From a virus, in IMG/VR virus record IMGVR_UViG_3300009446_000003, positions 1 to 49,440 of that record: a stretch of DNA of 49,440 nt, one strand, 5' to 3'. Below are positions 15,985 to 49,440 of this stretch, piece after piece. Each line of letters opens with the position of its first letter. The stretch's first letter is position 1. Under the pieces are notes generated by a model, which had not been told where the DNA came from, ran no database searches, and was given only the letters and a program-made list of their open reading frames with translations. A program made the translations under genes and the position numbers.

Positions 15985-15988
15985 TACA

Positions 15989-16318: not shown

Positions 16319-16348
16319 TAATTTTTAAGATTTTAAGATTTTAAGATT

Positions 16349-16375: not shown

Positions 16376-16388
16376 ATTTTTTTTTAAT

Positions 16389-17170: not shown

Positions 17171-17174
17171 TTAT

Positions 17175-18385: not shown

Positions 18386-18414
18386 TAAAGGAAACTTGAA
18401 TTAAATATTTTTTG

Positions 18415-18888: not shown

Positions 18889-18937
18889 AAACTACCAATA
18901 TCTGTAATAAAAAATTCAGTTATTGGTAGTTTTTTTT
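18889..18937 (+). terminator. Rho-independent terminator (AAACTACCAATA...TATTGGTAGTTT followed by a T-run)
   Basis: 12-bp outer stem plus a 3-bp inner stem; T-run through 18937. Confidence 0.8.
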
Positions 18938-18939
18938 AT

Positions 18940-19095
18940 ATTTGCAATGTGGACAGAACTTTGTAGCAAGATACGAACTATTTTTAAAATAAACAAACAA
19001 ATAAACATTTATTTTAAATTATTTTTCAATGTGGACGGAATTTTGTAGCAAGATACGAACTATTTTTAATATAAACAAACAAATAAACATTTATT
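18940..19095 (-). repeat. Two tandem R modules upstream of 19116..19676
   Basis: Cores at 18947-18990 and 19029-19070: ATGTGGAC(A/G)GAA(C/T)TTTGTAGCAAGATACGAACTATTTTTAA. Confidence 0.7.
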
Positions 19096-19115
19096 TTTGA
19101 AATTAATCAAAACTT

Positions 19116-19676
19116 ATGAGTAACAAAAAATCAAATCTAAAGTCTTTAAAAAGGCTTGGGCTTATTAGACTATTCAAAAATACTAATTGGAAGCATAACG
19201 GCAAAGGGACCGCGTGTTATAAAGGATTTGGATACGGTCAGTACGAGCTAAAAGATAGGGCTAAGATAATGGGAATACCAGAAATTGATTTAGTTACAAA
19301 AAATCACTATGAGCAATGGGAAGGTGTAGAGGTCAAAATGATAAAGGGCGCATTTCATACATCTATAGAAATATCTAAAGAATTGATTGATGATAATAGC
19401 TATAACCCACCAAGTAAAATTTTAAGAATAAAAAACCCTTCAAATAATCCGTTTATTGCATCGGTTTGTTTTCCAGATTTGGAATTGATATTCACAAATA
19501 TTGTTACACAAAATCAAGTTAGTAAAGATTTGATATTTTCGCAACTAGACATAACAACAGGTAAATTTGATCCATATGTCAAGTTTAATCCTAGAGTGTT
19601 TTTGTATATTGACTATGTTAGTGATGTCGCTAAAAACGATCTTTTTTCAAATAAAAAACGATACAATTTAAAATAA
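19116..19676 (+). CDS. Hypothetical protein
   Basis: 186-aa ORF, last gene of the accessory island. Confidence 0.55.
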   Translation: MSNKKSNLKSLKRLGLIRLFKNTNWKHNGKGTACYKGFGYGQYELKDRAKIMGIPEIDLVTKNHYEQWEGVEVKMIKGAFHTSIEISKELIDDNSYNPPSKILRIKNPSNNPFIASVCFPDLELIFTNIVTQNQVSKDLIFSQLDITTGKFDPYVKFNPRVFLYIDYVSDVAKNDLFSNKKRYNLK

Positions 19677-19819: not shown

Positions 19820-21115
19820 ATGCCGCATACAACATTTAATTCTATTGAATTAAGTGACTACCAAAAAGGATTCTTGTATAATGACAAGCGGTTCACTGTA
19901 GTTGAAGCAAGCACAAAAGCTGGCAAGACACAGCCATGTATACTTTGGTTACTTCAAACGGCTTTAAATGCTAATCCAGTACTGAATTATGATGATGTTG
20001 ATGGTAAGAACTTTTGGTGGGTAGCCCCTGTTTATTCTCAGGCTAGAATTGCCTTCAGGAGAATGAAGAAAATAGTTAAAAAAATAAAAGGCTTCAGTTT
20101 CCGAAAAATGGAAATTGAAACCCCTTTGGGTTCTATAATAACATTTAAGTCAGCAGAAAAACCTGACAATCTTTTTGGAGAAGATGTATATGCTTGTGTT
20201 TTCGATGAATACAGTAGAGCTAGGAAAGAAGCATGGAATGCAATTTACTCTACTCTAACGGCAACAAAAGGAGTAATCAAGGCAATAGGAAACTATAAAG
20301 GTCTTAACAATTGGGGGCATAAACTAATGTTAAAGGCACAAAAAGACGATAGGTATTACCATGCTATTATAACGGCTTGGGATGCAGTAGAAGCTGGCAT
20401 ATTAGAAAGGCAAATAATTGAAGATGCGCAAAGCGACTTGCACCCTGACGAATTTAATGCGCTATATCTTTGCAAAGGCTCAATTGACGATCTTCGATTG
20501 TTCATGATGAAATGGATTAATAAAGTTTTTGGCAAGAAGAAAAGCAATAGAACAGGTGAGTATTTTATAACGGCAGATTTGGCGTTTGATGGTTCGGATT
20601 TATTGGTTATCGGCATTTGGGATGGATTGAATTGTTTTGAAATAAATACTTTCAAAAAGTCAAGCGGAAGAAAAATAAAGAAATTGATTAACAAATATGC
20701 AAATAAATACAATGTTAGTGAGGGGAATATTGTTTATGATGCAGATGGTGGGGGCATGGGGCTAAGTGGAATACTAAAAGGAAAGAAATTTAAAAACGGA
20801 AAGAAAGCAGTTAACAATGAGGATTTTGTAAATTTGAAAGCAGAATGCATTTACAAGTTAGCTGAATTGATGAAAAAAGGAAAGATAACAGTTTGCAAAA
20901 AGTACAGAGATCAAATCTCTGAAGAAATGGAATACATAAGAAAAGTTTATGATAGAAAAGACAGATTAGGAGTAAATAAAAAGTCAGAACTCAGAAAAAT
21001 AATAGGTCGTTCAACGGACTTTCTGGACATGCTTTACATGAGAATGATATTTTTATTAGAACCCGAAATTGATGTTTCTTTTGAAAAGATAAGTACGGGT
21101 ATATTTAAAAGATAA
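19820..21115 (+). CDS. terL: Terminase large subunit
   Basis: Walker A VEASTKAGKTQ, Walker B YACVFDEYS, nuclease-domain acidic motifs ITADLAFDGSD and IVYDADGGGMG. First gene of the morphogenesis block. Confidence 0.85.
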   Translation: MPHTTFNSIELSDYQKGFLYNDKRFTVVEASTKAGKTQPCILWLLQTALNANPVLNYDDVDGKNFWWVAPVYSQARIAFRRMKKIVKKIKGFSFRKMEIETPLGSIITFKSAEKPDNLFGEDVYACVFDEYSRARKEAWNAIYSTLTATKGVIKAIGNYKGLNNWGHKLMLKAQKDDRYYHAIITAWDAVEAGILERQIIEDAQSDLHPDEFNALYLCKGSIDDLRLFMMKWINKVFGKKKSNRTGEYFITADLAFDGSDLLVIGIWDGLNCFEINTFKKSSGRKIKKLINKYANKYNVSEGNIVYDADGGGMGLSGILKGKKFKNGKKAVNNEDFVNLKAECIYKLAELMKKGKITVCKKYRDQISEEMEYIRKVYDRKDRLGVNKKSELRKIIGRSTDFLDMLYMRMIFLLEPEIDVSFEKISTGIFKR

Positions 21116-21139: not shown

Positions 21140-23065
21140 ATGGCTAAGAATAAAATAAAGAATGCACCAAAAAAATCTAGTTCAAATTCTGGTTTTTTAA
21201 AATTCCTAATAGAGAATGCACTTATACCTCAATCAACAAACAAAAATTCATTTTTTAAAATTGACAAATCTAAAAAAGAATTGAACGATTTTGAAAAATG
21301 CATTAAAATTAGCAATATATGGACTTCGCTTGCAACAGTTAAAAACGTAGGCAAAGAAGGGTTTGAGAGTGATTGGCTTAAATCAATGTTTCCCAGCATA
21401 ACAACATCGGTTGTGTTGGAATCTCCTGACAAAATAAATGCAATTGCTTCTGAACTAGAACAAATAAATTTAATACCTAGAGTAAATACTTGTACACCTG
21501 TTTCAACTACAACCGAAGCAAAACTAAAAGAGCTTACATCTAAGTTGGCAATACAAACAAATGGTGATAGCTTGAAAGACAACCTAATGTCTTACTTTAT
21601 TGATTTGAATATAAAAGACCCCAATGCATTTATATGGCTAAGAAAAAAGTATGATACTGGTATCCAATACCTAGAGTGTTATAAGTGTTCAGATGTTGTA
21701 GGAAAATTCTATGATTGTGGAGCATTGCAGTATGTTGTACTTAGAAAAAAAGTAAAATACAAAGGCAAGGATAATACTATTTACACATTGTTATCAGAAG
21801 GTTTTGATGTCATTCACCAAATAACAGAAGGTGACAATATACCAGAACAAACGAAAATAGAAGATTTACAAAAAATACTGGTTGAATCAGATGAATATAG
21901 TGAAACTGAAATTAGTACAATTATCATGGGTGGAGGTGGTAAGAAGTATCACCTTCAATCATTTCAAAGTGTTAGCTCTATAGAAGGTTGCTTTGCTGGA
22001 TTTGTAAAGTCTGATTACGAAAATATTTTCAATTCAATCATATCAACAGTTCACGGAAAAATAATAAATTACATATTAGCAGCAATTTGTTGGCAAAATC
22101 ATTTATCAATTCACGGATATGCTGAATTGAATCAATATTCAATAGAATGCAGTCATGAAATTAAAGGAGGAAATGGAAAAAATAAGTATCATCATAAATG
22201 CAATGGTGGTGTTTTTAATGGTTCAGATTGCCCAGCTTGTGATGGTACTGGATATTCTGGAATGACTAAAAGCGAAACTGGTGTAACTCGTTATAAGTTG
22301 AAAAACATAAAAGACTTGGAGAAAATGCCCGACTTAAACAAAGTATCTTCTTACCGTCCAATACCTAAAGAAGTGCTTGAAATAAATAAGGAGAATTTTA
22401 ACAAGTATTGCGAGTCAATTGTTCCGTCATTTTTTGGTGCTGCTGATGCTGGAAAAGTTGACTTTTCGGACAAGCAAAAACATGGAAGTGACAAAACCGC
22501 TACTGAAATAATTGCTGGAAATGTCCAGCCAAAAAACAGGGTATTTTTCAAAATTGACAAAGCATTTACTAAAAAGTACAAGCATCTTGCAAAAGTAGCA
22601 GCAGCATACGAGGGAATAAAAGACGTAAATGTTTATTATGAAGAAATAAAAGACTACAACTTGGAATCAATGGCATTAATAAATGCAGCGTTGTCGAATG
22701 ATAACCTTACATTTGTTTCAAAAGCTGCATATGAAATAAAACTAATGACTATATTGTATGGAGTTGGAAGCATAGAAGTATCTAAGATTAAGATTATCAA
22801 CAACCTGAATCCTGTTAAGTATATGACTCAGGTACAGTTAAACTCTCTTATTCCAACGCTTGAAGATAATGACAGGCTTTTGATTGCATATACTAATTTT
22901 CATCCTATAATAGACGAACTATTTTCAAGTGATAAATTTATGGATAAATCTGAATCTGAACAGGTAAAGGATTTCAATAAAAAAGTCAATGAGTTGGTTG
23001 AGAAAGCAAATGTAATTAAAAAGTCCAATAATGAAAAAAAGAATTTTATTAGATCAAATAAATAA
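21140..23065 (+). CDS. Putative portal protein (contains a DnaJ-like CxxCxGxG zinc-finger insert)
   Basis: 641 aa, immediately downstream of terL and upstream of the Mu-F-like gene (conserved synteny). I recognise no portal motif by eye. Confidence 0.5.
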   Translation: MAKNKIKNAPKKSSSNSGFLKFLIENALIPQSTNKNSFFKIDKSKKELNDFEKCIKISNIWTSLATVKNVGKEGFESDWLKSMFPSITTSVVLESPDKINAIASELEQINLIPRVNTCTPVSTTTEAKLKELTSKLAIQTNGDSLKDNLMSYFIDLNIKDPNAFIWLRKKYDTGIQYLECYKCSDVVGKFYDCGALQYVVLRKKVKYKGKDNTIYTLLSEGFDVIHQITEGDNIPEQTKIEDLQKILVESDEYSETEISTIIMGGGGKKYHLQSFQSVSSIEGCFAGFVKSDYENIFNSIISTVHGKIINYILAAICWQNHLSIHGYAELNQYSIECSHEIKGGNGKNKYHHKCNGGVFNGSDCPACDGTGYSGMTKSETGVTRYKLKNIKDLEKMPDLNKVSSYRPIPKEVLEINKENFNKYCESIVPSFFGAADAGKVDFSDKQKHGSDKTATEIIAGNVQPKNRVFFKIDKAFTKKYKHLAKVAAAYEGIKDVNVYYEEIKDYNLESMALINAALSNDNLTFVSKAAYEIKLMTILYGVGSIEVSKIKIINNLNPVKYMTQVQLNSLIPTLEDNDRLLIAYTNFHPIIDELFSSDKFMDKSESEQVKDFNKKVNELVEKANVIKKSNNEKKNFIRSNK

Positions 23066-23072
23066 ATAAATA

Positions 23073-23909
23073 TTGAAAGCTAAAAAGCGTCATAAGAGAG
23101 TTTATAAAAGTATAGACACTAGTTTTGATACACTAGATAAGATTTTAGCAAAAATGATTGAAGGTGTTTTAGATGATACTGACAGAATCAATAATGATGA
23201 TTCAGTAACAAAAAAAACAAATGCAATAAATGCAATAAAATTCAAGAAAGGTGTATTCGATGAACTTTTGAAAACATTTTCAGATGGTGCTAAAGATGTA
23301 AGTGACAATGTAGAAAAATATTTCATAAGGGTTAGTGGCAAGAAGAAGAAAGACAAAAAGAAGATTTACAAAAAATACTCTAATCTTCAACTAGATAGTA
23401 AATCTTTTCTAAAAAAAATAAAGAAAGCTTTACTTGCCAAAATTGGAACGGAATTTACAAGGCAAATAGTAAACAAAACGCTTACTACTGTTTTTGATAG
23501 GTTTGCAATGGATACAAAGGCAGGTATTCAAAATGATCTATTGAAAATTGACCGTGAGCAGTCAAAAGAATTAGCTTCAAAATACAAGCTTAATTATGTA
23601 AGGTATCAAGGTGGTAGAATTAAATATTCAAGGGATTTTTGTATTGAAAGAAATGGAAAAGTTTTTCATATTGAAGAAATGAAAAAGTTTGGAACCCCAT
23701 TGGATGCATTTAATGGATATACAGACAAGGAAAACGGTGTATTCAATGGAAAATGGAAAGGTGCAAAACTAAATGTTTACTATGGTGGTTCTGGTTATGA
23801 TCCTTTGACGGACTTAGGTTGTTATAACTGCATACACTTCTTAGACTATCTGCCAAGATCAAGGGCGATTAAGATTCGTCCAGAACTGGAATTGTTATAC
23901 GATGATTGA
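23073..23909 (+). CDS. Head morphogenesis / minor capsid protein (SPP1 gp7 / Mu F-like)
   Basis: Position after the portal candidate. C-terminal YSRDFCIERNGKVFHIEE ... GCYNCIHFL resembles D.rvR..C..l.G.vf / NCRC motifs. Apparent TTG start at 23073 (next ATG at 23154). Confidence 0.55.
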   Translation: MKAKKRHKRVYKSIDTSFDTLDKILAKMIEGVLDDTDRINNDDSVTKKTNAINAIKFKKGVFDELLKTFSDGAKDVSDNVEKYFIRVSGKKKKDKKKIYKKYSNLQLDSKSFLKKIKKALLAKIGTEFTRQIVNKTLTTVFDRFAMDTKAGIQNDLLKIDREQSKELASKYKLNYVRYQGGRIKYSRDFCIERNGKVFHIEEMKKFGTPLDAFNGYTDKENGVFNGKWKGAKLNVYYGGSGYDPLTDLGCYNCIHFLDYLPRSRAIKIRPELELLYDD

Positions 23910-26281: not shown

Positions 26282-26309
26282 TTATATTTAAATAAATAAA
26301 TGTTTGTTT

Positions 26310-29042
26310 ATGGATGGTTTTACAGAAATTGGTGGTAAGTATAGTTTTGATGCTAGTGAGTTTCTTAACGCATTTGACCTAATGGCAGGTGCGCAACTTT
26401 TGCATGTAAAACTTAGCGAACAGGCAATTGATAAATCGCAAGAACAAACAAAGGAGCTTGAAGATCAAGCCAAAGAAACCAAGAAACTTAGTGGAGAAGT
26501 AAAAGACTTGATAGGAGATTATAAGATTTTCGGAGTTTCAATAAATGATATATCTGAAAAATATGACACTAACAAAAAGAAGATACTTGATACAGTTTCA
26601 GCTATTAAGCTAATAGTTACAGGGCAAAAAGCAGCAGCAGTAAGTACAGGTGTTTGGTCAAATTCCTTGAAGTTTTTAAGGCTTGCAATAATTGGAACAG
26701 GTCTTGGTGCTTTTATAATTGCATTTGGTTCATTATTGACATTTTTAACAAGAACAACAAAAGGGACTGAGGCACTTGCTAGAGTAATGAGGCCAATTGG
26801 TGAGATATTTCAAACTATTATTGGACAGATAGAAAATCTAGGTGAAGGATTGTTTGATTTTTTAACAAGCGGTGATAGTGTAGAAAAGAAATTTGTTGAT
26901 ATTGGTCAAGCCATTCTTGATAATATTACAAACCGATTTATCGCAATACCCAAAATTGGTTCACAAGTATTTTCAATACTTGGAGATATTGTAAAAGGTT
27001 TTGCAGAAAAAGCAAAAGTTGATCTTGCAAAACTTCCTATACTAGGTAACTTCTTAGATGTTTCAGAAAGTGAAGAAAAAATAAAAAAGTCGCAAGAAAA
27101 TATAATTGAAGGATTCAAGGAATTGTCTGCATTGACTGGACAGGCAATAACAGGCATTGATTCGGAAAGAATAAAGGATATTGCAGTTCAAACAGTTGAG
27201 ATAATAAAAGAAGCATCGGCAAGGGGTTCAAGCTTGGCAGCTTTACAGGCGCAAATCGCAAGAGGTAGAATTGATCTTATAAAAACTGAAGGTCAAATAA
27301 TTCAAGAAATAAAGGAGAATAAAAAGATAGTTGAAGATACAACAAACTCTTTAAAAGACAGAGAATCTGCTTCAGTAAAAGCAACTGAAGCAGCCGACAG
27401 ATTAGCACAGGCAAGGGCTAGACAGGCAAATCTTGAATTAAGATATTTGAATTTAAGTGCAGAAGCAAATGCAACAAGCTTAGACGGGTTAGAGGAAATT
27501 GCTAACAAGGAAAGAGAGCTTATTGATATAGAGAATGAGCGCATTGACCTACAAACAGAATTAGGTGTCAAACTTAATGAATTAAGAGCGCAAGACAAAG
27601 CAGCTAGAGAAGAAGCTCAAAAGCAAATTGACGAATTTAAAGCAGCTTTTGACGAATTGCTGTTCGCTGCTAGTATATCAGAGAACATAAACCCGTTAGA
27701 AGCTCTAGGGCGAGATTTTGAAAGAAACATTGTTATACTAAGAGCAGAGCAAGCGGAGTTTTTGAAAATGGCAATTGCAGCAGGTGCAACAGAAGAACAG
27801 ATTTTAAAAATAAATAATGCATTTGATGTATTAGCTAAAAAAATATCTGAAGATTTTAGGCGAAATGCATTTGAAGGATTTGAAAGATTACCAACATTGG
27901 AGATTGAGACGGATGTTAAGATTGAAGATGTAGGCGAGACATTCAGGAAAGCTATACAGAAACTTGGAACCTTCGATGATCCAACAAGTGAAAGAGTATT
28001 GAGTAATTACTTAGAGGGATTGGGAGCGTTTAGTGCAGATGAAATATCAAAGTATTTAGATGGTGTGTTTGGTGACCCGTTTGAGATTCGCCTAAAACCT
28101 AAATATGTTGTTGAGGATGATCCAGAAGGTGATGCACTTACTGGTCTTCAGAAAATAATTGATGAATTAGATTTGGACTTTGAAAAAGTGTTTACGGAGG
28201 TGCTACCAAAGACACTAGATTTTATTGGAGAAATTACAGAATTTCAATTAGAAGAATTAGATAAGTTAATTGATGCACAGCAAGATAGATTAGATGGTTT
28301 GTCAGAAGATTTGGAATATAATCAAGAATTAAACAGAAGGGGCTTAGAAAATAATCTTAGTGATATTCAATCTAATTTTGATAGGCAAATTGAAATACAA
28401 GATGATTACTTGCAAAAGAAAGAAAAGCTCGAAAAAAGAGCAGCAATAGCAAAACAACTAAGCGAGGGTATTTCTACGGCTGCAAGTCTTACTAGTTCAT
28501 TCGCTTCGGTTTTTTCTGCTGTTGGAATCACGGGACCATTCGCACCGATTATTGCGGCTGGTATAATTTCAGCATTACTGGCACTTCTTAAATCTTCAGT
28601 TAAAAAAGGTCTTTCATCATTTTGGGATGGAACAGAAGGACGTTTAAAAGACGAAGATTTAAGCCCAATGTCAGTTGGTAGAGACGGGTATGTAGTAAAT
28701 GCAGATGGTAGCGAAGCTATATTCAAAGGTTCTGATGTTAATGAAATGGAGAAGTCAATGGGTAGTAAATTTTCAAATAGGGGTTACTTGGATTATGTAA
28801 AAGATTTGGAAAATAAACGATACTTGAATACTTCAAAAGAATCTTTAATGATTCAATACAATTATCAAAATCAAGACAATGAGTATATTGAGATGTCATA
28901 TAATGAACTTGTTAAAATTTCAAAAACAAATTCAGCTATACTTGAATTGACAGGGGTTACAACAATACAAAATGAAGATGGTTCTTTTACATTTATTTCG
29001 AGCGATAAAAAAACAGTTAGAAATATTCAATTTTCAAATTAA
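26310..29042 (+). CDS. Tail tape measure protein
   Basis: 911 aa, long coiled-coil segments, hydrophobic helices (LRLAIIGTGLGAFIIAFGSLLTFL; GPFAPIIAAGIISALLALL). Position after the G/GT pair. ATG at 26310 preferred over TTG at 26304. Confidence 0.8.
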   Translation: MDGFTEIGGKYSFDASEFLNAFDLMAGAQLLHVKLSEQAIDKSQEQTKELEDQAKETKKLSGEVKDLIGDYKIFGVSINDISEKYDTNKKKILDTVSAIKLIVTGQKAAAVSTGVWSNSLKFLRLAIIGTGLGAFIIAFGSLLTFLTRTTKGTEALARVMRPIGEIFQTIIGQIENLGEGLFDFLTSGDSVEKKFVDIGQAILDNITNRFIAIPKIGSQVFSILGDIVKGFAEKAKVDLAKLPILGNFLDVSESEEKIKKSQENIIEGFKELSALTGQAITGIDSERIKDIAVQTVEIIKEASARGSSLAALQAQIARGRIDLIKTEGQIIQEIKENKKIVEDTTNSLKDRESASVKATEAADRLAQARARQANLELRYLNLSAEANATSLDGLEEIANKERELIDIENERIDLQTELGVKLNELRAQDKAAREEAQKQIDEFKAAFDELLFAASISENINPLEALGRDFERNIVILRAEQAEFLKMAIAAGATEEQILKINNAFDVLAKKISEDFRRNAFEGFERLPTLEIETDVKIEDVGETFRKAIQKLGTFDDPTSERVLSNYLEGLGAFSADEISKYLDGVFGDPFEIRLKPKYVVEDDPEGDALTGLQKIIDELDLDFEKVFTEVLPKTLDFIGEITEFQLEELDKLIDAQQDRLDGLSEDLEYNQELNRRGLENNLSDIQSNFDRQIEIQDDYLQKKEKLEKRAAIAKQLSEGISTAASLTSSFASVFSAVGITGPFAPIIAAGIISALLALLKSSVKKGLSSFWDGTEGRLKDEDLSPMSVGRDGYVVNADGSEAIFKGSDVNEMEKSMGSKFSNRGYLDYVKDLENKRYLNTSKESLMIQYNYQNQDNEYIEMSYNELVKISKTNSAILELTGVTTIQNEDGSFTFISSDKKTVRNIQFSN

Positions 29043-33101: not shown

Positions 33102-33734
33102 ATGATACACAAGTTAATTGACAAGAGCAATAAACGCCATACGGCAACTACGATTGCTAAAAGAGACGCATTAGTTAAGGGTGGAATGCGTATTGTTCCA
33201 GATACACCAAAAGAATTGAAAATAAACATTTTTGCTGAAGATGGTTTTTTGGATTTGTGCGAAAAATCCAAAATAGACCCTTCTGATATTAAGCCAACAG
33301 GTGATGGTGGTAAATTTTTACTTGAAGATGTTGAAACTCATATTCTAAAAATGTATAAAGAATATGAGAAAGTTAAAGCGGATAAGCTAAAGGCTAAGAA
33401 GAAAAAGGCTAAGAAGAAAGTTAAAGCGGATAAGACCAAAGGAACTGCTAAAGCGGATAAGACCAAAGGAACTGCTAAGACGGCTACTAAGACGACAGCT
33501 ACCAAAGGAACTGCTAAGACGGCTACTAAGACGACAGCTACCAAAGGAACTGCTAAAGCGGATAAGACCAAAGGAACTGCTAAGACGGCTACCAAGACGG
33601 CAGCTACCAAGACGGCAGCTACCAAGACGGCTACCAAGACGGCAGCTACCAAAGGAACAGCTACCAAAGGAACAGCTACCAAAGGAACAGCTACCAAAGG
33701 AACAGCTACCAAAGGAAGTGCAGAAACAGAGTAA
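33102..33734 (+). CDS. Protein with a PSBD/HeH-like motif and a C-terminal histone-H1-like K/T/A repeat tail
   Basis: IDPSDIKPTGDGGKFLLEDVETHI resembles the peripheral-subunit-binding/HeH pattern (l..v.GtGpgGrI.keDv). The C-terminal 110 aa is KADKTKGTAKTATKTTATKGTA repeats. Confidence 0.5.
   Translation: MIHKLIDKSNKRHTATTIAKRDALVKGGMRIVPDTPKELKINIFAEDGFLDLCEKSKIDPSDIKPTGDGGKFLLEDVETHILKMYKEYEKVKADKLKAKKKKAKKKVKADKTKGTAKADKTKGTAKTATKTTATKGTAKTATKTTATKGTAKADKTKGTAKTATKTAATKTAATKTATKTAATKGTATKGTATKGTATKGTATKGSAETE
33385..33715 (+). repeat. K/T/A coding repeat (third locus of this repeat family)
   Basis: GCTACCAAAGGAAC(A/T)GCT and AAGACGGC(A/T)(G/A)CTACC units, shared with 338-728 and 1966-2190. 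Confidence 0.8.
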
Positions 33735-38035: not shown

Positions 38036-40684
38036 ATGAAGTATTTATTTAAATTATTACTATTTGTTTGTGCATTCAATTCTATGAATGCACAAACTTT
38101 TTTGGTAAATGAATGGTATAGTATAGATTGCGCAAAAGGGTATGAGACAAATATATTATATTTTTGTCTATGTGAAGATGTAGAAGAAATGTATATTGAT
38201 TCTGTAAAAGTTGAACCTGTTCAAAGTGTTGTGAATTGGGCGTACTTAGCTAACTTGCCTGAAGTTGATTTTAGTTTTAATGGAATTACTCAAACTGGAC
38301 ATGTTATAACTTACAAGGCACTTGATTGTATTTATAGGGTAGGATTTGTAATTGATGATAATTGTGCGCCATTATGTTATGATTGTCCAAAAGGTGAATC
38401 TTGTAGTTGTGAGTGTGATAATATCATTCCTTGCAATACTGATTGCAGTACTGGAAACCTTGAAGTTTTTGACAATGAAATTTGTGAATGTGTTTTATAT
38501 CAAATTTCAAGTAATGGATGCACTGATATAACTGCTTGTAATTATGACCCATTTTCTAACTGTGATGATGGTTCTTGTATCTATGAATCAAATTTTCAAT
38601 GTAATACCGATTGCAGTACTGGAAACCTTGAAGTTTTCTCTAATGAGCAATGTGATTGTATATTGTTAGAAGTCTCTGTATTTGGCTGCAATGACGCTAC
38701 TGCTTGTAATTATGATCCATTGGCTAATTGTGACGATGCTTCTTGTAATTTTGGCAATACTGCTTGTCCAGACCCTTGCAATGTCTTATTTGGCTGCAAT
38801 GACGCTGCTGCTTGCAATTATGATCCATCTGCTAATTGTGACGATGGTTCTTGCAATTTTGGCAATACTGCTTGTCCAGACCCTTGCAATGTCTTATTTG
38901 GCTGCAATGACGCTGATGCTTGTAATTATGATCCATTGGCTAATTGTGACGATGGTTCTTGTAATTTTGGCAATACTGCTTGTCCAGACCCTTGCAATGT
39001 CTTATTTGGCTGCAATGACGCTGCTGCTTGCAATTATGATCCATTGGCTAATTGTGACGATGGTTCTTGCAATTTTGGCAATACTGCTTGTTCGGACCCT
39101 TGCAATGTCTTATTTGGCTGCAATGACGCTGCTGCTTGTAATTATGATCCATCTGCTAATTGTGACGATGGTTCTTGCAATTTTGGCAATACTGCTTGTC
39201 CAGACCCTTGTAATGTCTTACTTGGCTGCAATGACGCTGCTGCTTGTAATTATGATCCATCTGCTAATTGTGACGATGGTTCTTGCAATTTTGGCGATGG
39301 CTGCAATGACGCTGCTGCTTGCAATTATGATCCATCTGCTAATTGTGATGATGGTTCTTGTGTTTATTGTCCAATCGGGGGAATTTGTGAAAATGGTGAT
39401 TGTTTTTGCCCAGATTGCAATACTGATATTTTAGTTAATGGCATAAGTACATGTGTCAATGTATGTGGTAGCACTTCTGACTCATTGAATTGTCCAGATT
39501 TTTGTGAATCTTTTACATGTCCAGATGGCAGTTTAGTAGTTGATTGCTTTGAGTGCTATTGTGTTGATCTTGAATTGTTTGTTGATTTTTCTACCTCAAT
39601 GTCTTTTGAGGGAATTACTGGACAGACATTGATGGCTGAAACACTTCAGGGTGTTGGTCAATTGATACAAAATTTAGGAATAAATTATCCTAATAAATTT
39701 TCATTAACGGTTTACTCTTATTCTAGTCAAGAGCATGCAGGTATTCTACTTGAATGCGTAATTGTTAATGAAAATAATAAGGATGAACTTTCTGATTTTT
39801 TCGTTACTGAAATATGTAATGATATTACTGCATACATACCAAATTGCGGTGTAAATAGCTCGTGTACCTGCGGAAATACATATCCATTTTATGCTTTGCA
39901 ATTAGCAGAGCCTTACGAGGGTTGTGTTAATTGTACAGATGAAAGTACAATACCAATGTTATTGATCATGACAGATGGTTCGTTTAACGAAAGTTCTTCC
40001 ATGATTAATACTGTAGAAAATTGGTTTAATAATTTGCCAGTCGCTCAACAAATAAATGCACAAACAGTAGGTATACAATTTGCTAGTGATGAAGAATGTG
40101 ATGTAAGTGACGGAATGAAGGCATTTGGAAGTTATTACGGCGGACCTAGTGTTTATTGTGGAAATGATATTAATGATCTTTTTTCTAATGCAATAGAGCT
40201 GTTGTGTAATAATAAATGTGTTCAATATCAAGATTTACTTGTTTGTAACCCTTGTGATGATGGAGAGCTTTTTTTAAATGGTATATGTAGTGAAAATAAA
40301 AGATTAAAAAATGGTAATTGCAGTCATTATTTTAGTGGATATGAAACTTCTACTGAGTATTGTGTAAATGAATTTATAAATATTGAATGTTCAAATTATA
40401 GTATTGATGAAATTTGTTATTCAAAATGTAGTTGTGAGGATTCGTTTAAAATTCCATTTTCTAATACAAGAAGCGATGGCTTTTTAGAAGTGTCAGTTTG
40501 CGCTCCAATATGTGATATTGGTAAATATTGGAATTTTGTCACAAATAATTGTGAATTTATTTGTGAAGAGGGTTATATGATTTACGTAAATGGAGAATGC
40601 AAGCAATTTATTGATTGTAATGATGAAAATTGTATTAATATTGTAAATGATTCTATTAATAAAAAATGTTACTGTAATGATTAG
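38036..40684 (+). CDS. Secreted, extremely Cys-rich protein with tandem CNYD...CDDGSC modules and a vWA-like domain (MIDAS DFSTS)
   Basis: Signal peptide MKYLFKLLLFVCAFNSMNA|Q. At least 8 copies of GC(N/T)DxxACNYDPxxNCDDGSC, six of them as 36-aa exact-period repeats. FVDFSTSMS matches DxSxS. About 105 Cys by rough eye count. Confidence 0.7.
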   Translation: MKYLFKLLLFVCAFNSMNAQTFLVNEWYSIDCAKGYETNILYFCLCEDVEEMYIDSVKVEPVQSVVNWAYLANLPEVDFSFNGITQTGHVITYKALDCIYRVGFVIDDNCAPLCYDCPKGESCSCECDNIIPCNTDCSTGNLEVFDNEICECVLYQISSNGCTDITACNYDPFSNCDDGSCIYESNFQCNTDCSTGNLEVFSNEQCDCILLEVSVFGCNDATACNYDPLANCDDASCNFGNTACPDPCNVLFGCNDAAACNYDPSANCDDGSCNFGNTACPDPCNVLFGCNDADACNYDPLANCDDGSCNFGNTACPDPCNVLFGCNDAAACNYDPLANCDDGSCNFGNTACSDPCNVLFGCNDAAACNYDPSANCDDGSCNFGNTACPDPCNVLLGCNDAAACNYDPSANCDDGSCNFGDGCNDAAACNYDPSANCDDGSCVYCPIGGICENGDCFCPDCNTDILVNGISTCVNVCGSTSDSLNCPDFCESFTCPDGSLVVDCFECYCVDLELFVDFSTSMSFEGITGQTLMAETLQGVGQLIQNLGINYPNKFSLTVYSYSSQEHAGILLECVIVNENNKDELSDFFVTEICNDITAYIPNCGVNSSCTCGNTYPFYALQLAEPYEGCVNCTDESTIPMLLIMTDGSFNESSSMINTVENWFNNLPVAQQINAQTVGIQFASDEECDVSDGMKAFGSYYGGPSVYCGNDINDLFSNAIELLCNNKCVQYQDLLVCNPCDDGELFLNGICSENKRLKNGNCSHYFSGYETSTEYCVNEFINIECSNYSIDEICYSKCSCEDSFKIPFSNTRSDGFLEVSVCAPICDIGKYWNFVTNNCEFICEEGYMIYVNGECKQFIDCNDENCINIVNDSINKKCYCND
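38681..39365 (+). repeat. 108-bp in-frame tandem repeat, about 6.3 copies
   Basis: TTTGGCTGCAATGACGCT... recurs at 38681, 38789, 38897, 39005, 39113 and 39221, with a truncated unit at ~39294. Confidence 0.9.
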
Positions 40685-44285: not shown

Positions 44286-44604
44286 TATTTACAAAGGTTT
44301 TGAGACTGCATTAACAATGTATGTAAATTATCCTTTTTTGGTAATAATGACATGTATAGGTATAGCAGTTACTATTTCGGGAATAAATAAATTTAAATTT
44401 GGTAGTATTAGAGTTATTAAATTTTGGTGGGTTGTTTTCTTTTCTGTTTTAGCATCTATTCCTATATGTGAAATGGAATGGTTTGGTGCAACTGGTGAAC
44501 AGCTTGCATTTACTATTATGGTTGGTTCAGCATCATTTGAAGGATTGTCTTTTCCAATAATGAAATTTTTGAAAATAGAAAAAAGATTTAGCTATGAAAA
44601 ATAA
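44278..44604 (+). CDS. Holin-like / membrane protein (3 TM helices)
   Basis: 108 aa; 8-nt overlap with the upstream gene; three hydrophobic helices. Confidence 0.45.
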   Translation: MLDIYKGFETALTMYVNYPFLVIMTCIGIAVTISGINKFKFGSIRVIKFWWVVFFSVLASIPICEMEWFGATGEQLAFTIMVGSASFEGLSFPIMKFLKIEKRFSYEK

Positions 44605-45673
44605 ATATTTATTTATTTATATTTTGATTGCACTGACTAACTGTAATTTTGCATTTAGTCAGTGCGAAACTGAGCAAGTAGATAATACTGGTTCAGTCTG
44701 CATAATTCCAGTTTGTGATATTGAAAAGTATTTTGATATTTCAGGATTGGAAAATAATACACAGGTAGAACTGGAAAATGGAACGCTTTATATATTGACC
44801 TCTATAAATGCGGAAGAAATAAAGGCATTGCGTGAATCTTGTTGCTACCCTTGTTGTAACATACAGATACCAGAACATCCGACAGCAATTAGTATTGATA
44901 ACTTCGATGATATTGTATTTCCAGAACATCCAGAGATACCAGAACATCCGACAACGATTAGTATTGACAACTTCGATGATATTGTATTTCCAGAACATCC
45001 AGAGATACCAGAACATCCGACAGCAATTAGTATTGACAACTTCGATGATATTGTATTTCCAGAACATCCAGAGATACCAGAACATCCGACAGCAATTAGT
45101 ATTGACAACTTCGATGATATTGTATTTCCAGAACATCCAACAGAATTTGGCATAAATTCTAGTTGTGATAATCCAGTTTTTACAGTTGGTTGCAATGACG
45201 AAAAAGTAATATCAATACTGGAAGCAATGACGAAATGGCTTAGTATTATTTCGGCAGAACAAAAAGAACAAATTATTCTTTTGCAATTTCAGTTAGATAG
45301 TTGTTGTAATAAAATTTCAACTGAGAATACGACTATAGGAAATAATTTATTTTTTGGATTCGTGGATAATGCTGGAAATATTATAAATGGAAGTAATAAT
45401 TTTTCAATTGTAAAAGTATCAACTGGTTTTTTTCGTGTTATTTTCAATTCTCCATGTCCATCTAATCGGTATGCGGTAACTACTGGTGTTACTGAAGATT
45501 TTACAAATAGAGATGTTGTTAAAATATCCGTAGTAGAAGGATCAAGAACGGCAATTAGTTTTGATCTTATGTTAACTACAGATGATAATGGACAAAATGC
45601 AGATGTTTTAACAGATGCAGATTTTAGTTTTTCAGTTATAAAAGAAAAGACAATAACTACTATAAAAAACTAA
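44594..45673 (+). CDS. Secreted protein with four 23-aa IPEHPTAISIDNFDDIVFPEHPE repeats
   Basis: Signal peptide MKNKYLFIYILIALTNCNFAFS|Q; 69-bp tandem repeats. Confidence 0.6.
   Translation: MKNKYLFIYILIALTNCNFAFSQCETEQVDNTGSVCIIPVCDIEKYFDISGLENNTQVELENGTLYILTSINAEEIKALRESCCYPCCNIQIPEHPTAISIDNFDDIVFPEHPEIPEHPTTISIDNFDDIVFPEHPEIPEHPTAISIDNFDDIVFPEHPEIPEHPTAISIDNFDDIVFPEHPTEFGINSSCDNPVFTVGCNDEKVISILEAMTKWLSIISAEQKEQIILLQFQLDSCCNKISTENTTIGNNLFFGFVDNAGNIINGSNNFSIVKVSTGFFRVIFNSPCPSNRYAVTTGVTEDFTNRDVVKISVVEGSRTAISFDLMLTTDDNGQNADVLTDADFSFSVIKEKTITTIKN
44867..45142 (+). repeat. 69-bp in-frame tandem repeat, 4 copies
   Basis: ATACCAGAACATCCGACA... recurs at 44867, 44936, 45005 and 45074. Confidence 0.9.
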
Positions 45674-45753: not shown

Positions 45754-46638
45754 ATGAGATATTTATTTATTTGTTTGTTTATTTGTTTGCTTTGCAATGT
45801 TAATGCACAAACAAATATTGATAGTATTTGCATAAAAATGATTGCAACTCCATTGAATCCAATTAGTGTTGAGCTTGGTAACTTAGCTTTTCATGATGCT
45901 GGTCTTACTCCTTTGGGCAATACATCTTGTGCAAGTTGCCACAATACATATAATGCTCATTTGGCGGTTGATGGCTTCCAAATAGGCATAGGTGGTGGGG
46001 TTTCTGGTGGTCGTAGAATTGATTTGCAATACTTTCCTGAACAAGTACAAAAAGATATTGTAAAAATGATAAATAATTCAAGATTTACACCGACTTCTTT
46101 AGTTCACTCGAAAACAGAAAGAGTAGGTATAAATGGTGCTATGACACCAATGACACAGGCTAGTTTGGAATTTGGTTTTACTGCACACACTTATGTTGTT
46201 GAAAATTGCCACAATAACGAAGTTTATGAGCATTACTTAAAATTACTTACAGGACGTACTAAAATGAAGGAATCAGACCTATCTAATAGCATAGTAGACT
46301 ATGAGATGGATGATGCTATAAGATGGCTTTTAAGCACTGATTATGGTCAATATCTAATCGGTCAATACAAACTTTCAAAACAGGAGATCAAGGCAAAGCA
46401 AATTTTTGAAAAAGATTGTGCAAGTGGTTGTCACGGTACGGGCACTTTTAAAGGTGATACACCGATTGATTCAATACAACCTACTTCAATCATTGGTTCT
46501 TGGGATAAAAAGCTTAAAGGTCGTGATATGGAATACAAGACTAATAGCGGATTTTTGAAAGATCATTGCAAAAAAATAGGAATCGAATACAAAAAAGATG
46601 TTTTGAAATTCATAAAATTACTATCTGTAGAAAACTGA
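45754..46638 (+). CDS. Secreted di-haem cytochrome c peroxidase / MauG-family-like protein
   Basis: Signal peptide MRYLFICLFICLLCNVNA|Q. LGNLAFHDAGLTPLGNTSCASCHN matches the CCP N-terminal haem motif (lG..LFfD..LS.....sCasCH). The second site DCASGCHG is CxxxCH rather than CxxCH. Confidence 0.65.
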   Translation: MRYLFICLFICLLCNVNAQTNIDSICIKMIATPLNPISVELGNLAFHDAGLTPLGNTSCASCHNTYNAHLAVDGFQIGIGGGVSGGRRIDLQYFPEQVQKDIVKMINNSRFTPTSLVHSKTERVGINGAMTPMTQASLEFGFTAHTYVVENCHNNEVYEHYLKLLTGRTKMKESDLSNSIVDYEMDDAIRWLLSTDYGQYLIGQYKLSKQEIKAKQIFEKDCASGCHGTGTFKGDTPIDSIQPTSIIGSWDKKLKGRDMEYKTNSGFLKDHCKKIGIEYKKDVLKFIKLLSVEN

Positions 46639-46811: not shown

Positions 46812-46867
46812 TTGCATTTATACCTTAAATGCAAAACCGTTAACATTCTATTGTTGACGGTTTTTTT
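46812..46867 (+). terminator. Two adjacent hairpins (46812-46834; 46835-46862), the second followed by a T7 run
   Basis: TTGCATTTA-N5-TAAATGCAA, then AACCGTTAACA-N6-TGTTGACGGTT plus TTTTTTT. They lie about 200 nt after the nearest upstream stop codon. Confidence 0.6.
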
Positions 46868-46880: not shown

Positions 46881-46979
46881 AAAATAAACAAACAAATATT
46901 TGTTTGTTTGCAAAATTTAGATTATCTTTGTTATACATTAGCGGAACAACCGCATAACCTTTAAAAACTTTATATCAAT
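46881..46979 (+). promoter_or_regulatory. P cassette copy 10: 24-bp AAAC palindrome, TTTG(46899-46902)-N20-TATCTTTG(46923-46930), leader hairpin GCGG-AACAA-CCGC (46941-46953)
   Basis: Exact -33/-7 geometry; ATG at 46980. Confidence 0.7.
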
Positions 46980-47393
46980 ATGGAAAGTAAGCAGAATGAA
47001 ATACAAAATTTAAGAATTGAACACTTTGAGTCGGTAATAAGTGATACGCATTTGCAAATAGATACAAACATGAGAATTGCTAAGTCTTTAGAATCTAGTG
47101 AATTAGTTGATTTGGAAACTTGGAAATTGGACTGTTTTAAATATAAGATTAAGTGCCTATATGATGTTCGGTCATATGTTTGTTTAGGAGAAAAAGGCGT
47201 TTTTAGTGATTATAGAGATTTGTGTATCCGTTTGATATGTGACGATCTACAAGGTTATGAAATTCAGGTAATCAGAGATGTTTTGGGATTGATTAGAAAG
47301 GTTCATCGTATTATTGGTAAAAATAATAATGGATTAATATATAGTAAAATATCTGATAAAAAAGTACACTTAATATTGCACTTAAATTCTTAA
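46980..47393 (+). CDS. Hypothetical protein (P-cassette driven)
   Basis: 137-aa ORF directly after ...TTTATATCAAT-ATG. Confidence 0.55.
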   Translation: MESKQNEIQNLRIEHFESVISDTHLQIDTNMRIAKSLESSELVDLETWKLDCFKYKIKCLYDVRSYVCLGEKGVFSDYRDLCIRLICDDLQGYEIQVIRDVLGLIRKVHRIIGKNNNGLIYSKISDKKVHLILHLNS

Positions 47394-47399
47394 ATTTAT

Positions 47400-47497
47400 C
47401 AAAAACACAAACAAACAAATATTTGTTTGTTTGTAAAATTTAGATTATCTTTGTTGTACATCAGCGATTAGTCGCACAAAATTTTAAACCTTATATA
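47400..47497 (+). promoter_or_regulatory. P cassette copy 11: palindrome 47408-47431, TTTG(47421-47424)-N20-TATCTTTG(47445-47452), hairpin GCGA-TTAG-TCGC (47463-47474); drives the rep operon
   Basis: Same family; followed by 47498..47902 and rep. Confidence 0.7.
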
Positions 47498-47902
47498 ATG
47501 AAAAAAAATATTTTTATACAAAAAGTAATTTCAAGAATTAAAAGGCTATCTTTCTTTATTGACTATGATACCGATTCTGGAATACTTTTTCATGCAATGA
47601 TGTATTTTGGATTTGGAATTGAAGGACCAACAAATTTTAGATTTGTTAGAGATAGGTTTACTGATATTACAATAAGACTTGAGGTTAAGGAGAAAAAAAG
47701 AAAGATACAATCTTGTAAACTGGTAATTGAAAGTAACACGCTCTCAATTAAATCTTTAAATGGTTATTATAGGATTTTGAATAATTATCAAAAAAAATTT
47801 GATGGTAAAAAGTTTAATTATCATTTAGTCAAGCCAAGTTCACTTTTCAATCGCATGGAAATTTCCGATATTCGGGAATGGAAAATAAATAAACAAACAT
47901 AA
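47498..47902 (+). CDS. Hypothetical protein, translationally adjacent to rep (TAA then ATG)
   Basis: 134-aa ORF, first gene of the rep operon. Confidence 0.5.
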   Translation: MKKNIFIQKVISRIKRLSFFIDYDTDSGILFHAMMYFGFGIEGPTNFRFVRDRFTDITIRLEVKEKKRKIQSCKLVIESNTLSIKSLNGYYRILNNYQKKFDGKKFNYHLVKPSSLFNRMEISDIREWKINKQT

Positions 47903-49234
47903 ATGGCAAAAACACAACAGGAACAAGATAGATTAATTGCAATTTCAAATGACTTGGTACTATCTTGCTACAGCTTTAATTTATGGGAATTTCGCTTGTT
48001 CTTCCTTGCAATACAGGATGTAAAAAGGAGCGACAAAGTATTTAGACCCTTTAAGTTTTATGCAAAAATCGTCAAGCAGTTCTTTAAGAATAAATCAAAC
48101 GGAGCTTATAAGAAAATAGTAGATGCATGTAGCTCATTACAAAAAAAGCAACTAGTAGTAAATTATAATGATTCCGATGGAGATGAAAGGCAAAAAACGA
48201 TAAATATATTTTCTTTAACAGATAAGCCTAGAAATGAAAATTCAACAAACAAATATTTGTTTTTAAAATTCAATGATGATGTCATGCCTTATCTTCTTAA
48301 CTTGATAGCGAATTATACATTGTTTGACATAAGAAATATTTTAAATTTGAGGTGTTCTGCTTCATTTCGATTGTATCAAATTTTCAAAATGAAAGAATGT
48401 AATTTCAAAGATGAAATCACATTTGATCTACCTGTTGATTTTCTCAGAAAAATGATGATTGTTGATTCAGAAGGTGAACCAGTTGATAAATATTCTAGGT
48501 ATAGTGATTTTAAGAATTTTGCACTTACCAATCCATATAAGCAGATAAATCAGAATACCGATGTTAAATTTAAGTTTGTGGAACTAAAAAAAGGCAAGAC
48601 AATTGATAAGATTAGATTTACAATATACAAAAATATTCCTTTGAAATTAACTGTCAATCAATCAATCAAAGAATCAAAGAGCTATCAATTACTTTTAAAA
48701 AATGGTGTTACTGAATCCATGTGCTTAGATATTTGCAAGAATCAAGAAGATAAGTTTATAATTTTTACTTTAAATAAATGCATTGAGGATCATATGCGCA
48801 AATCAAAAAATAATCTAGCTGGTTACATAGTTAGCTCTATAAAAAACGGTTTGTATATAGTTGAATACAAAAATAGATTGTCTAAAATTGAAGCTTCAAA
48901 AGTTAAGAAATTGAAGCTTCAGGAATTGATGGTGCAAGATTCCGAAATACAAAAATATTTAGCTTCATTTAAAAATCTATTAAAAAGCACTATATCTATT
49001 ACTAAAGAAAATTTATCCAATCAAGAAATAGAGAATTACCTATCTACTTGTAAGAGAAAATATCCTTTACAGACTTGCAAAACCGATCCTGAAATTATGC
49101 AAAGTATATTTTTTGACTTTGTAGTACAGGAAAATATTAAAGAATTTTCAACATTTGAAATTTGGATGAAGCATACGCATAACCTAGAGGTTTTAAAATG
49201 TAACGACACTAATTTGTATTTGTATAAAAAATAA
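47903..49234 (+). CDS. Plasmid-type replication initiator (Rep_3/RepB-like)
   Basis: N-terminus ...IAISNDLVLSCYSFNLWEFRLFFLAIQDV... matches the Rep_3 pattern (sN.Li.a.y.Lsl.E.rl.l.li). The iteron array starts 94 nt downstream. Confidence 0.7.
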   Translation: MAKTQQEQDRLIAISNDLVLSCYSFNLWEFRLFFLAIQDVKRSDKVFRPFKFYAKIVKQFFKNKSNGAYKKIVDACSSLQKKQLVVNYNDSDGDERQKTINIFSLTDKPRNENSTNKYLFLKFNDDVMPYLLNLIANYTLFDIRNILNLRCSASFRLYQIFKMKECNFKDEITFDLPVDFLRKMMIVDSEGEPVDKYSRYSDFKNFALTNPYKQINQNTDVKFKFVELKKGKTIDKIRFTIYKNIPLKLTVNQSIKESKSYQLLLKNGVTESMCLDICKNQEDKFIIFTLNKCIEDHMRKSKNNLAGYIVSSIKNGLYIVEYKNRLSKIEASKVKKLKLQELMVQDSEIQKYLASFKNLLKSTISITKENLSNQEIENYLSTCKRKYPLQTCKTDPEIMQSIFFDFVVQENIKEFSTFEIWMKHTHNLEVLKCNDTNLYLYKK

Positions 49235-49327
49235 TCATCATTTTCATTATTGTTGATTATTACATCATTATTACAAATATTATTACGTGCCTATAATAAA
49301 ATGATAATCAAATGATTGTATCTTTTT

Positions 49328-49440
49328 AAACGGGTAAAGAGGGATGTTTAAACGGGTAAAGAGGGATGTTTAAACGGGTAAAGAGGGATGTTTAAACGGG
49401 TAAAGAGGGATGTTTAAACGGGTAAAGAGGGATGTTTAAA
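49328..49440 (+). repeat. Iteron array (five 22-bp copies plus a 3-nt partial); the same physical array as 11-142 on the circular map
   Basis: AAACGGGTAAAGAGGGATGTTT at 49328, 49350, 49372, 49394 and 49416. Confidence 0.9.

Follow-up and report, generated by a model that had tools for sequence, protein, structure and literature searches.

A Rep_3 initiator gene and a 22-bp iteron array as a candidate replication origin on a tailed-phage genome of a probable Bacteroidota host

The rep gene, its iterons and the rep operon

The stretch of DNA analysed here, referred to below as the window, is the IMG/VR virus record IMGVR_UViG_3300009446_000003 at its full length of 49,440 nucleotides (nt). On its plus strand, close to the right end, lies rep (47903-49234), which encodes a 443-amino-acid (aa) initiator of the Rep_3 family. 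An array of 22-base-pair (bp) tandem direct repeats, or iterons, begins 90 bp 3′ of the rep stop codon, runs across the overlapping ends of the contig, and is followed by an A/T-rich stretch. An original prediction, made from the letters and a list of open reading frames (ORFs), had read this arrangement as a plasmid-type initiator and iteron origin carried on a tailed-phage genome.

The predicted Rep protein consists of two winged-helix domains (WH1, residues 12-162; WH2, residues 193-241) followed by a helical C-terminal extension of ~200 aa. It had been called Rep_3-like, and a Pfam search of 47903-49234 bore this out, both domains scoring above their gathering cut-offs (Rep3_N: 2.9e-24, 86.5 bits against a cut-off of 22.4; Rep3_C: 2.2e-12, 47.4 bits against a cut-off of 21.1). 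Matches were also obtained to the NCBIfam models RepM (3.3e-21) and RepE (8.5e-16) and to phrog_4402, a PHROG family with Rep_3-like initiators (2.3e-29). When PDB sequences were searched, residues 9-240 aligned to mini-F RepE (1REP, 5.7e-9), and the R6K pi protein was matched as well. An AlphaFold model built on eight sequences (predicted local distance difference test score, pLDDT, of 80.5) returned as its top Foldseek matches the pi-iteron complex 2NRA (TMt 0.71) and the RepE54-iteron complex, each with a probability of 1.00; against pi and RepE54 bound to their iterons, the template-modelling (TM) score was ~0.7 over ~230 residues, at 16-22% sequence identity. Residues 250-443 form an all-helical extension that is common to the relatives of Rep and that had no match in the PDB when the model was compared by structure. 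Based on the Pfam families, the PDB sequence match and the predicted fold, ORF 47903-49234 is a genuine two-domain Rep_3 initiator of plasmid type, and a very divergent one.

Relatives detected by tblastn numbered 2,952 plasmid records and 6 phage records, four of the six phage records being 4-8 kb in length. The best full-length matches (up to 94% of the query, C-terminal extension included) were mainly to Bacteroidota plasmids, at 21-29% identity, with Aureispira, Chondrinema, Bernardetia, Haliscomenobacter, Hymenobacter and Spirosoma among the plasmid genera matched; these replicons are annotated as plasmids. The nearest of 1.84 billion representative proteins was 32% identical to Rep, a word-indexed search of 5.8 billion proteins returned Rep itself only, and the closest metagenomic relatives shared its architecture, again including the C-terminal extension. 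With Rep as the query, no close relative of the phage was found in IMG/VR.

The iteron array comprises six perfect, exactly tandem 22-bp copies of TTTAAACGGGTAAAGAGGGATG on the plus strand at 8-139, as the original prediction had described; the same array reappears at the right end of the contig (49325-49440, plus strand) as 5.3 units of TTTAAACGGGTAAAGAGGGATG, five of them complete (49325-49434). Allowing up to three mismatches, neither the 22-mer nor its 14-nt core was found anywhere else in the window, where chance alone would supply 0 and 1.2 matches, respectively. The 90-bp spacer that separates the end of rep from the iterons (49235-49324) is 78% A+T and holds three copies of ATTATTAC, at 49256, 49267 and 49279 (span 49256-49286), spaced 11-12 bp apart; genome-wide, this motif occurs seven times on the plus strand and four times on the minus strand, with three of these occurrences clustered here. 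On the far side of the array, the A/T-rich region at 140-251 is a candidate DNA-unwinding element and also contains a Bacteroidota-type promoter, TTTG-N19-TAAATTTG, at 165-195, serving the gene at 252-953. The A/T-rich stretch that had been noted after the array was confirmed at 140-239: it is 84% A+T, within the top 0.5% of the 100-bp windows of the genome, and in the top 2% by duplex stability. Intergenic DNA in this genome is generally A/T-rich, and the flank therefore gives modest support.

The relatives of Rep were fetched as 23 IMG/VR contigs and 28 metagenome contigs, with arrays examined in 19 of the metagenome loci. The metagenome scan used a smaller Rep alignment, an alignment of 25 sequences being too diverse. 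A tandem array with a period of 21-24 bp and 2.7-11 copies was found within ~1-2 kb of rep in 22 of the 23 IMG/VR loci, and arrays of 21-24 bp were found beside rep in all 19 metagenome loci examined. The iteron sequences vary from locus to locus and have in common a GGG core, also present in the unit of the window; TTTTCGGGAGTC, ATTTGGGAAG and TTGAGGGGTT are examples from the Rep relatives (loci L073-L096 and L050-L072). With 21-24-bp arrays beside the rep genes of nearly all of these distant relatives, the label "iterons" is well founded. The iteron pair of the window itself had no match in the JGI metagenome contigs. The arrays of relatives lie mostly upstream of rep, and in one close relative (L076) the gene is flanked on either side, three different arrays being placed around it; the downstream position seen in the window is thus unusual and not unique.

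Iteron plasmids with Rep_3-family initiators (mini-F RepE/oriS, R6K pi/gamma-ori, pPS10 RepA) share with the window the two winged-helix domains, the tandem repeats of ~22 bp beside the initiator gene, and the A/T-rich stretch adjoining them. The window differs in that its Rep is only 16-22% identical to theirs and adds the helical extension of ~200 aa, that it has a single array, located downstream of rep, with no DnaA box and no inverted-repeat operator, and that rep forms one transcription unit with the two genes ahead of it under phage promoters, the replicon being a phage genome.

The operon in question begins just after an intrinsic-terminator-like hairpin (46833-46864, plus strand) that closes the preceding, late transcription unit. 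A promoter/leader element (46889-46979 or, as delimited among its repeated copies, 46889-46985; plus strand), composed of the 18-bp palindrome CAAACAAATATTTGTTTG, the promoter TTTG-N20-TATCTTTG and a small GC hairpin, stands ahead of the first gene of the unit (46980-47393, plus strand; 137 aa, no family match). A second copy of the element (47412-47497 or, delimited in the same way, 47412-47503; plus strand) directly precedes a 134-aa gene (47498-47902, plus strand) and rep. The stop codon of the 134-aa gene abuts the ATG of rep, which suggests that the two are translationally coupled or co-transcribed; rep is the last gene of the three-gene unit 46980-49234. No terminator was found after rep, and transcription of the operon therefore reads into the array.

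The promoter/leader element, ~95 nt long, is present in 11 copies in the genome. Apart from the two in the rep unit, seven are on the minus strand (13072-13177, 13795-13889, 14374-14405, 15164-15258, 15840-15934, 17067-17163 and 17826-17921) and two on the plus strand (17862-17957 and 18424-18519). Nine of the 11 begin with the perfect 18-bp palindrome CAAACAAATATTTGTTTG, after which come TTTG-N20-TATCTTTG (of the Bacteroidota -33/-7 type), the small hairpin, and an end that reads AACCTTTAAAA...TATATCAATATG. The hairpin occurs as GCGG-ATCAA-CCGC and as GCGA-TTAG-TCGC, a compensatory change. Besides the rep unit, the element heads the minus-strand block 12336-17831 and the plus-strand genes at 17952 and 18514. 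Such a distribution resembles a phage temporal regulon more than it does autoregulation of the plasmid kind, and the palindrome is a candidate operator that could serve a repressor.

Several observations weigh against an origin at this site. No DnaA box (TTATCCACA) was found within 2 kb of the array with up to one mismatch, and matches to it across the genome were fewer than expected by chance. A search of the whole window with the 22-mer and its 14-nt core, allowing up to three mismatches, gave no inverted, iteron-like operator. DnaA boxes and a rep operator are common in Rep_3 origins and not universal. Cumulative GC skew showed no origin-like turn and tracked gene orientation. The number of iterons differed between assemblies (6, 5 or 2), the array lies 3′ of rep while those of most relatives lie upstream, and neither phage records, IMG/VR nor protein searches supplied a close relative of the phage for comparison.

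The module nonetheless carries the sequence features that define a Rep_3/iteron origin, namely 22-bp direct repeats adjoining the gene of an initiator that has two winged-helix domains, together with flanking A/T-rich DNA. The succession of a terminator, two promoter copies and the rep operon, and the nearby genes for replication and recombination, also speak for this function. On balance, we consider it likely that the region acts as a functional Rep_3/iteron (theta-type) origin for a tailed-phage genome with a circular map of 49.3 kb and a Bacteroidota host. By analogy with the RepE/pi paradigm and with lambda-type replication, events might be ordered as follows. Rep would be made from the three-gene unit 46980-49234 under its two promoter/leader copies, a class also used by some nine other units. 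Each iteron would then be bound by Rep monomers, which would use both of their winged-helix domains; with a period of 22 bp (two helical turns), the monomers would all lie along the same side of the DNA. The nucleoprotein complex so formed would open the adjacent 84% A+T stretch at 140-239, and the host replisome would be loaded, a step that we propose since none of the ORFs was recognised as a phage polymerase or primase. Finally, the ERF annealase, the Superfamily-2 (SF2) helicase and the TopoVI-A-like protein encoded nearby may help to turn circles into concatemers for packaging by the terminase.

Phage genes, host and lifestyle

That the replicon is a tailed phage follows from its large terminase subunit (TerL) and from a phage-type gene order. 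TerL (19820-21115, plus strand; 431 aa) matched phrog_2 at 5.8e-28, in agreement with the original prediction, and had 2,210 homologues at E<=1e-10. In its relatives, a small terminase (TerS) of ~186 aa is followed by TerL, by a gene of 520-620 aa (Portal_Mu in L103) and by a gene of 270-292 aa (Phage_Mu_F in L103); ORFs of 186, 431, 641 and 278 aa stand in the same order in the window. The first of these (19116-19676, plus strand) is a candidate TerS by position and size, and had no direct similarity to the 186-189-aa Terminase_2 gene at the same place in the TerL relatives. The third and fourth (21140-23909, plus strand) are, by gene order, the candidate portal and head-morphogenesis proteins; neither had a Pfam, PHROG or PDB match of its own, and the 278-aa ORF aligned weakly (25.5 bits) to the 292-aa protein of L106. 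A 912-aa ORF (26304-29042, plus strand) is the candidate tape measure by its size and position; its Pfam match was sub-threshold only, and a homologue (7e-18) lies 5 kb downstream of TerL on a Flavobacteriales contig (L006). For the tape measure and other morphogenesis genes of the original prediction, then, gene order and size agree, and firm homology is lacking for the tape measure and the portal. A tail-fibre PHROG match was also present. No major capsid protein was identified among the ORFs, and most of the structural ORFs are orphans. A 25-kb megablast query gave no match among 50,697 phage records, nor did the ORFs of 641 and 397 aa when compared with phages by tblastn.

Full-length relatives of TerL were found in genomes of Ekhidna, Leeuwenhoekiella, Epilithonimonas, Maribacter, Christiangramia, Saprospiraceae and Flavobacteriales. 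Some lie within Bacteroidota chromosomes (a complete genome in Epilithonimonas; Mb-scale contigs in Leeuwenhoekiella and Maribacter), and one 48.5-kb contig with a TerL relative (L106) carries a Bacteroidota-type integrase. The promoter pattern TTTG-N18-21-TAnnTTTG, of the -33/-7 kind, was found 13 times against 3.9 expected. The expression signals had been described as Bacteroidota-like; with the plasmid matches of Rep and the relatives of TerL pointing the same way, the host is probably a member of the Bacteroidota.

All 63 ORFs were screened against Pfam, PHROGs and NCBIfam for functions of integration and maintenance. None of them matched an integrase, serine recombinase, transposase or excisionase family, consistent with the failure of the original prediction to recognise an integrase. 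The same screens gave no match to ParA, TubZ, toxin-antitoxin or dimer-resolution recombinase families (TubZ_C_3 scored 17 bits against a cut-off of 27) and none to helix-turn-helix (HTH) repressor or antirepressor families. Roughly one quarter of the ORFs could be annotated; with about three quarters left without annotation, absent matches are weak evidence in both directions. The divergent gene pair 17175-17831/17952-18173 was considered as a CI/Cro-like switch for its sizes and layout, and had no HTH or S24 support.

A ParB-like protein had also been claimed, for the ORF at 6966-7583 (plus strand). This claim found little support: the ORF had a single PHROG match, a weak similarity to the ParB N-terminal domain (phrog_1033, 3.3e-5), no Pfam match and, in the PDB sequence search, only insignificant CRISPR-associated matches; its single-sequence AlphaFold model was unusable (pLDDT 32), and no ParA partner was found.

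Among the features of a phage-plasmid in the sense of Pfeifer et al. (2021), the window thus has genes of phage type together with a replication gene of plasmid type, and neither an integrase nor maintenance genes were recognised in it. The extrachromosomal prophage lifestyle put forward in the original prediction is accordingly sustained in part, by the phage genes, the plasmid-type Rep and the lack of an integrase, and is opposed by the lack of ParA or TubZ, of a repressor, of a toxin-antitoxin system and of a rep operator. In 185,579 species genomes, no related element was found, and similarity was confined to TerL; the element itself was seen on metagenomic contigs only. The TerL relatives in those genomes share no other gene with the window and are therefore silent on whether the element integrates.

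It seems to us quite possible, if a little short of an even chance, that the element is a phage-plasmid, i.e. a temperate, non-integrating phage whose Rep_3/iteron module keeps a copy-controlled circular plasmid in lysogens and whose structural genes are expressed on induction only. The relatives of Rep favour this reading by their residence on plasmid rather than phage records (2,952 versus 6), as does the absence of integrase, recombinase and transposase matches among the 63 ORFs. The TerL lineage includes temperate phages, as judged from the chromosomal relatives and the integrase of L106; here a plasmid replicon is present and the integrase is missing. ERF, Lar-like, DUF3560 and DUF2786 genes, which are common on prophages and plasmids, are also in keeping with it. 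Against it, ORFs of eight Rep_3-bearing IMG/VR loci yielded three ParA-type proteins and one TubZ-like protein, whereas the window yielded neither; the ParB-like call comes down to one weak match; and the screens turned up no repressor, antirepressor, toxin-antitoxin or dimer-resolution recombinase. Nor is there an iteron-like rep operator, the promoter class of rep is shared with about 9-10 other units, and the element occurs in no isolate genome among the 185,579. Precedent for non-integrating phage-plasmids exists, including crAssphage in the Bacteroidota (PMC7969092, PMC10983915).

A different lifestyle would assign the same module to a virulent or otherwise non-lysogenic phage that captured a plasmid-type initiator, the origin firing only after infection as an early origin in the manner of lambda O/ori-lambda; we regard this as possible also, though with some doubt. 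In lambda, the initiator O acts on tandem direct repeats beside A/T-rich DNA in a transcribed early region, and theta replication is followed by concatemers. The window module obeys the same logic (phage initiator, tandem repeats, A/T-rich flank) but its initiator is of the Rep_3 and not the O family, its array is intergenic whereas the lambda iterons lie inside the O gene, and lambda has an integrase and a CI/Cro switch. Early-regulon-like control of the rep operon, which sits behind two conserved copies of the promoter/leader that also drives the Lar-like/DUF2786/DUF3560 block, supports a role confined to the lytic cycle, as do the lack of recognised lysogeny or partition genes and of an autoregulatory operator, and the existence of phage families with Rep_3-like initiators (phrog_4402, 2.3e-29). 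The Lactococcus phage Skunavirus sv66901 likewise is a tailed phage with a full RepB/Rep_3 gene; its host is a Firmicute, and its similarity to the window Rep is confined to WH2 (residues 119-243, 28% identity). Skunavirus is a genus of virulent lactococcal phages, and such a gene alone therefore does not imply plasmid maintenance. Opposed to an exclusively lytic role are the plasmid association of Rep and the temperate relatives of TerL. Iteron systems, moreover, are made for the limitation of copy number, with no obvious benefit in a lytic burst, and the 18-bp palindrome at nine of the 11 promoters could be the operator of a repressor.

Most of the known phage-plasmids come from Enterobacteria, Firmicutes, Vibrio and Mycobacteria; for the Bacteroidota, crAssphage is, to our knowledge, the only case discussed. 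The set carried by P1 comprises RepA/oriR-incA, ParAB, Cre-lox and C1. P1, SSU5, N15 and the Acinetobacter-type phage-plasmids resemble the window in joining tailed-phage genes to a plasmid-type replicon with no integrase, and as a category phage-plasmids are established (PMC7969092). The window is about half the size of these classical examples, has no recognised partition, addiction, dimer-resolution or immunity repressor genes, and is known here from its sequence alone; the N-terminal half of its TerL is distantly similar (~27%) to terminases of the SSU5 group, and no other genes are held in common. Like the window, crAssphage (Carjivirus communis), a proposed phage-plasmid of the Bacteroidota, combines replication genes of plasmid type with the lack of an integrase (PMC10983915; PMC7969092). 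It differs in having RepL-type genes (PMC10983915) rather than Rep_3 and iterons and in being about twice the size, and it is an unrelated phage; the case for crAssphage, unlike that for the window, rests on culture and expression data. Some mycobacteriophages have extrachromosomal prophages maintained by a RepA-like phage protein and an origin, with autonomous replication reported from experiments (PMC7157519); their hosts belong to a different phylum, and the likeness to the window is by description.

A bolder proposal is that the window represents the first lineage of Rep_3/iteron phage-plasmids in environmental Bacteroidota, namely a temperate phage of 49 kb, siphovirus-like, in which an iteron replicon replaces the integrase without a known partition system, and in which an 18-bp palindromic operator at nine promoters governs the rep operon jointly with an anti-restriction/early block; we think this rather unlikely. 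If the phage-plasmid reading is true, the lifestyle would be extended to environmental Bacteroidota by way of Rep_3 and iterons, the compact rep and origin cassette would become a candidate shuttle-vector origin for Flavobacteriia or Cytophagia, and caution would be due against equating "no integrase" with "virulent" in metagenomic viromes. If the module is a lytic origin only, it would illustrate an ordinary modular exchange of replication genes between plasmid and phage.

The circular map

The contig had been said to close on itself, and an end-to-end comparison verified that positions 1-123 equal 49318-49440, with 123 nt the longest exact overlap. The overlap opens with 7 nt of unique sequence, after which the array starts. 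Subtracted from the 49,440 nt of the window, it leaves a unique circle of 49,317 bp with 30.8% G+C. An overlap inside a tandem repeat was all that the "circular, complete" status rested on; the status is valid here only through independent assemblies that confirm the closure.

An identical Rep protein was found on contigs of three other data sets. Two of these contigs, L001 (JGI 3300027623, 49,420 bp) and L002 (ENA ERZ27241781, 48,686 bp), are 99.9-100% identical to the window and run unbroken from rep across the array into the gene at 252-953. Both end instead inside the 108-bp tandem repeats of the gene at 38036-40684, which the window spans intact; the remaining contig, L003, terminates within the iteron array. 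The circular map is real, because two near-identical assemblies cross the junction and break elsewhere; the three long assemblies are circular permutations of one map. In all of the contigs compared, assembly breaks were located only at tandem repeats, and the 123-bp overlap therefore marks a place where a repeat stopped the assembly rather than a fixed terminal repeat. Such a map is equally compatible with a circular plasmid and with a permuted or concatemeric phage genome, and taken alone does not distinguish the two.

The caution in the original prediction that assembly might have collapsed or expanded the iterons was justified. The window has six units, L001 five and L002 two, to which may be added the ending of L003 inside the array. 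Other tandem repeats varied in the same manner: the product of the gene at 252-953 is 233, 197 and 115 aa long in the window, L001 and L002, respectively, and that of the gene at 44594-45673 is 359, 382 or 313 aa depending on the assembly. Since these repeats vary too, collapse during assembly is the likely cause of the differences in the array, whose unit number (2, 5 or 6) is assembly-dependent.

Phages with terminal repeats can have tandem repeats close to the ends of their genomes, and the ends of the window are located in the array, so that the array could be read not as an origin but as a packaging or terminal-repeat element, or an assembly artefact, of a linear genome with fixed 123-bp direct terminal repeats; this is very improbable given that L001 and L002 pass through the array unbroken and end elsewhere, that breaks are confined to tandem repeats across assemblies (i.e. 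are repeat-limited), and that arrays of the same period lie beside rep in nearly all relatives, small contigs included.

The in-frame repeats of two late genes deserve a description of their own. The first, at 38679-39295, consists of 5.7 Cys-rich units of 108 bp in the 882-aa ORF; the second, at 44865-45139, consists of 4 units of 69 bp within the 359-aa ORF. The two other long assemblies break or differ precisely at these repeats. Several contigs of the Rep relatives also end in or next to their arrays, so that assemblies seem in general to be prone to break at iterons. The metagenome that yielded L001 also contains a 6,858-bp contig (L078, Ga0209828_1007262) with a Rep 33% identical to that of the window and a 22-bp array of its own in 6.4 copies.

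Replication neighbours and other genes

The first gene after the proposed origin (252-953, plus strand) encodes the 233-aa protein mentioned above, with Lys/Ala/Thr-rich tandem repeats and a C-terminal domain of ~70 aa; it had no family match in Pfam, PHROG or NCBIfam. Next comes a single-strand annealing protein of the ERF family with a Lys-rich repeat tail (980-2572, plus strand; Pfam ERF 1.2e-9, PHROG Erf-like 3.4e-20), and further along an SF2 helicase assigned by family matches (ResIII/DEAD plus Helicase_C; 3455-4762, plus strand), for which a search gave no close relative. A 372-aa protein (7624-8742, plus strand) is TopoVI-A/Spo11-like: it matched phrog_6247, "DNA topoisomerase", at 1e-73, had no Pfam match, and contains the tyrosine motif LRQLYYQL and a Toprim E...DHDPSG motif. 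The idea that this ORF might be a hidden tyrosine recombinase or protelomerase was rejected, its motifs being those of Spo11/TopoVI-A and Toprim. A homologue is located near a TerL gene on a contig of a Dehalococcoidia metagenome-assembled genome (L023).

Repeats rich in Lys, Ala and Thr, of the type KTAATKTATKKDEAK and similar to histone H1/HC2, were observed in three proteins, at 336-734 (gene 252-953), 1972-2193 (the ERF gene) and 33389-33721 (gene 33102-33734). The number of these repeats varies between assemblies. The ERF gene had a weak Pfam HC2 match; it contains in addition a near-perfect in-frame tandem repeat of 18 bp in 6.8 copies at 1780-1902. No tRNAs were found in the window, and the PADLOC matches were all cross-matches to the SF2 helicase, so that no defence system was called.

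The late unit is closed by a di-haem cytochrome c peroxidase/MauG-like gene at 45754-46638 (Pfam CCP_MauG 1.4e-7; NCBIfam MbnH-family 3.2e-6), an unusual cargo for a phage. Two further repeated elements were noted in intergenic DNA or near gene starts. Units of 82 bp, about two copies each at 13209-13362, 18237-18389 and 18936-19097, are 90-94% identical, intergenic, and contain TGTGGACAGAATTTTGTAGCAAGATACGAAC. For the A-rich motif AAACAAACAAAT, 24 copies were counted on the plus strand and nine on the minus strand (examples at 4749, 9213, 10856, 19775, 21118, 32395, 37439 and 42524); it stands mostly just upstream of start codons and may be a leader or ribosome-loading signal.

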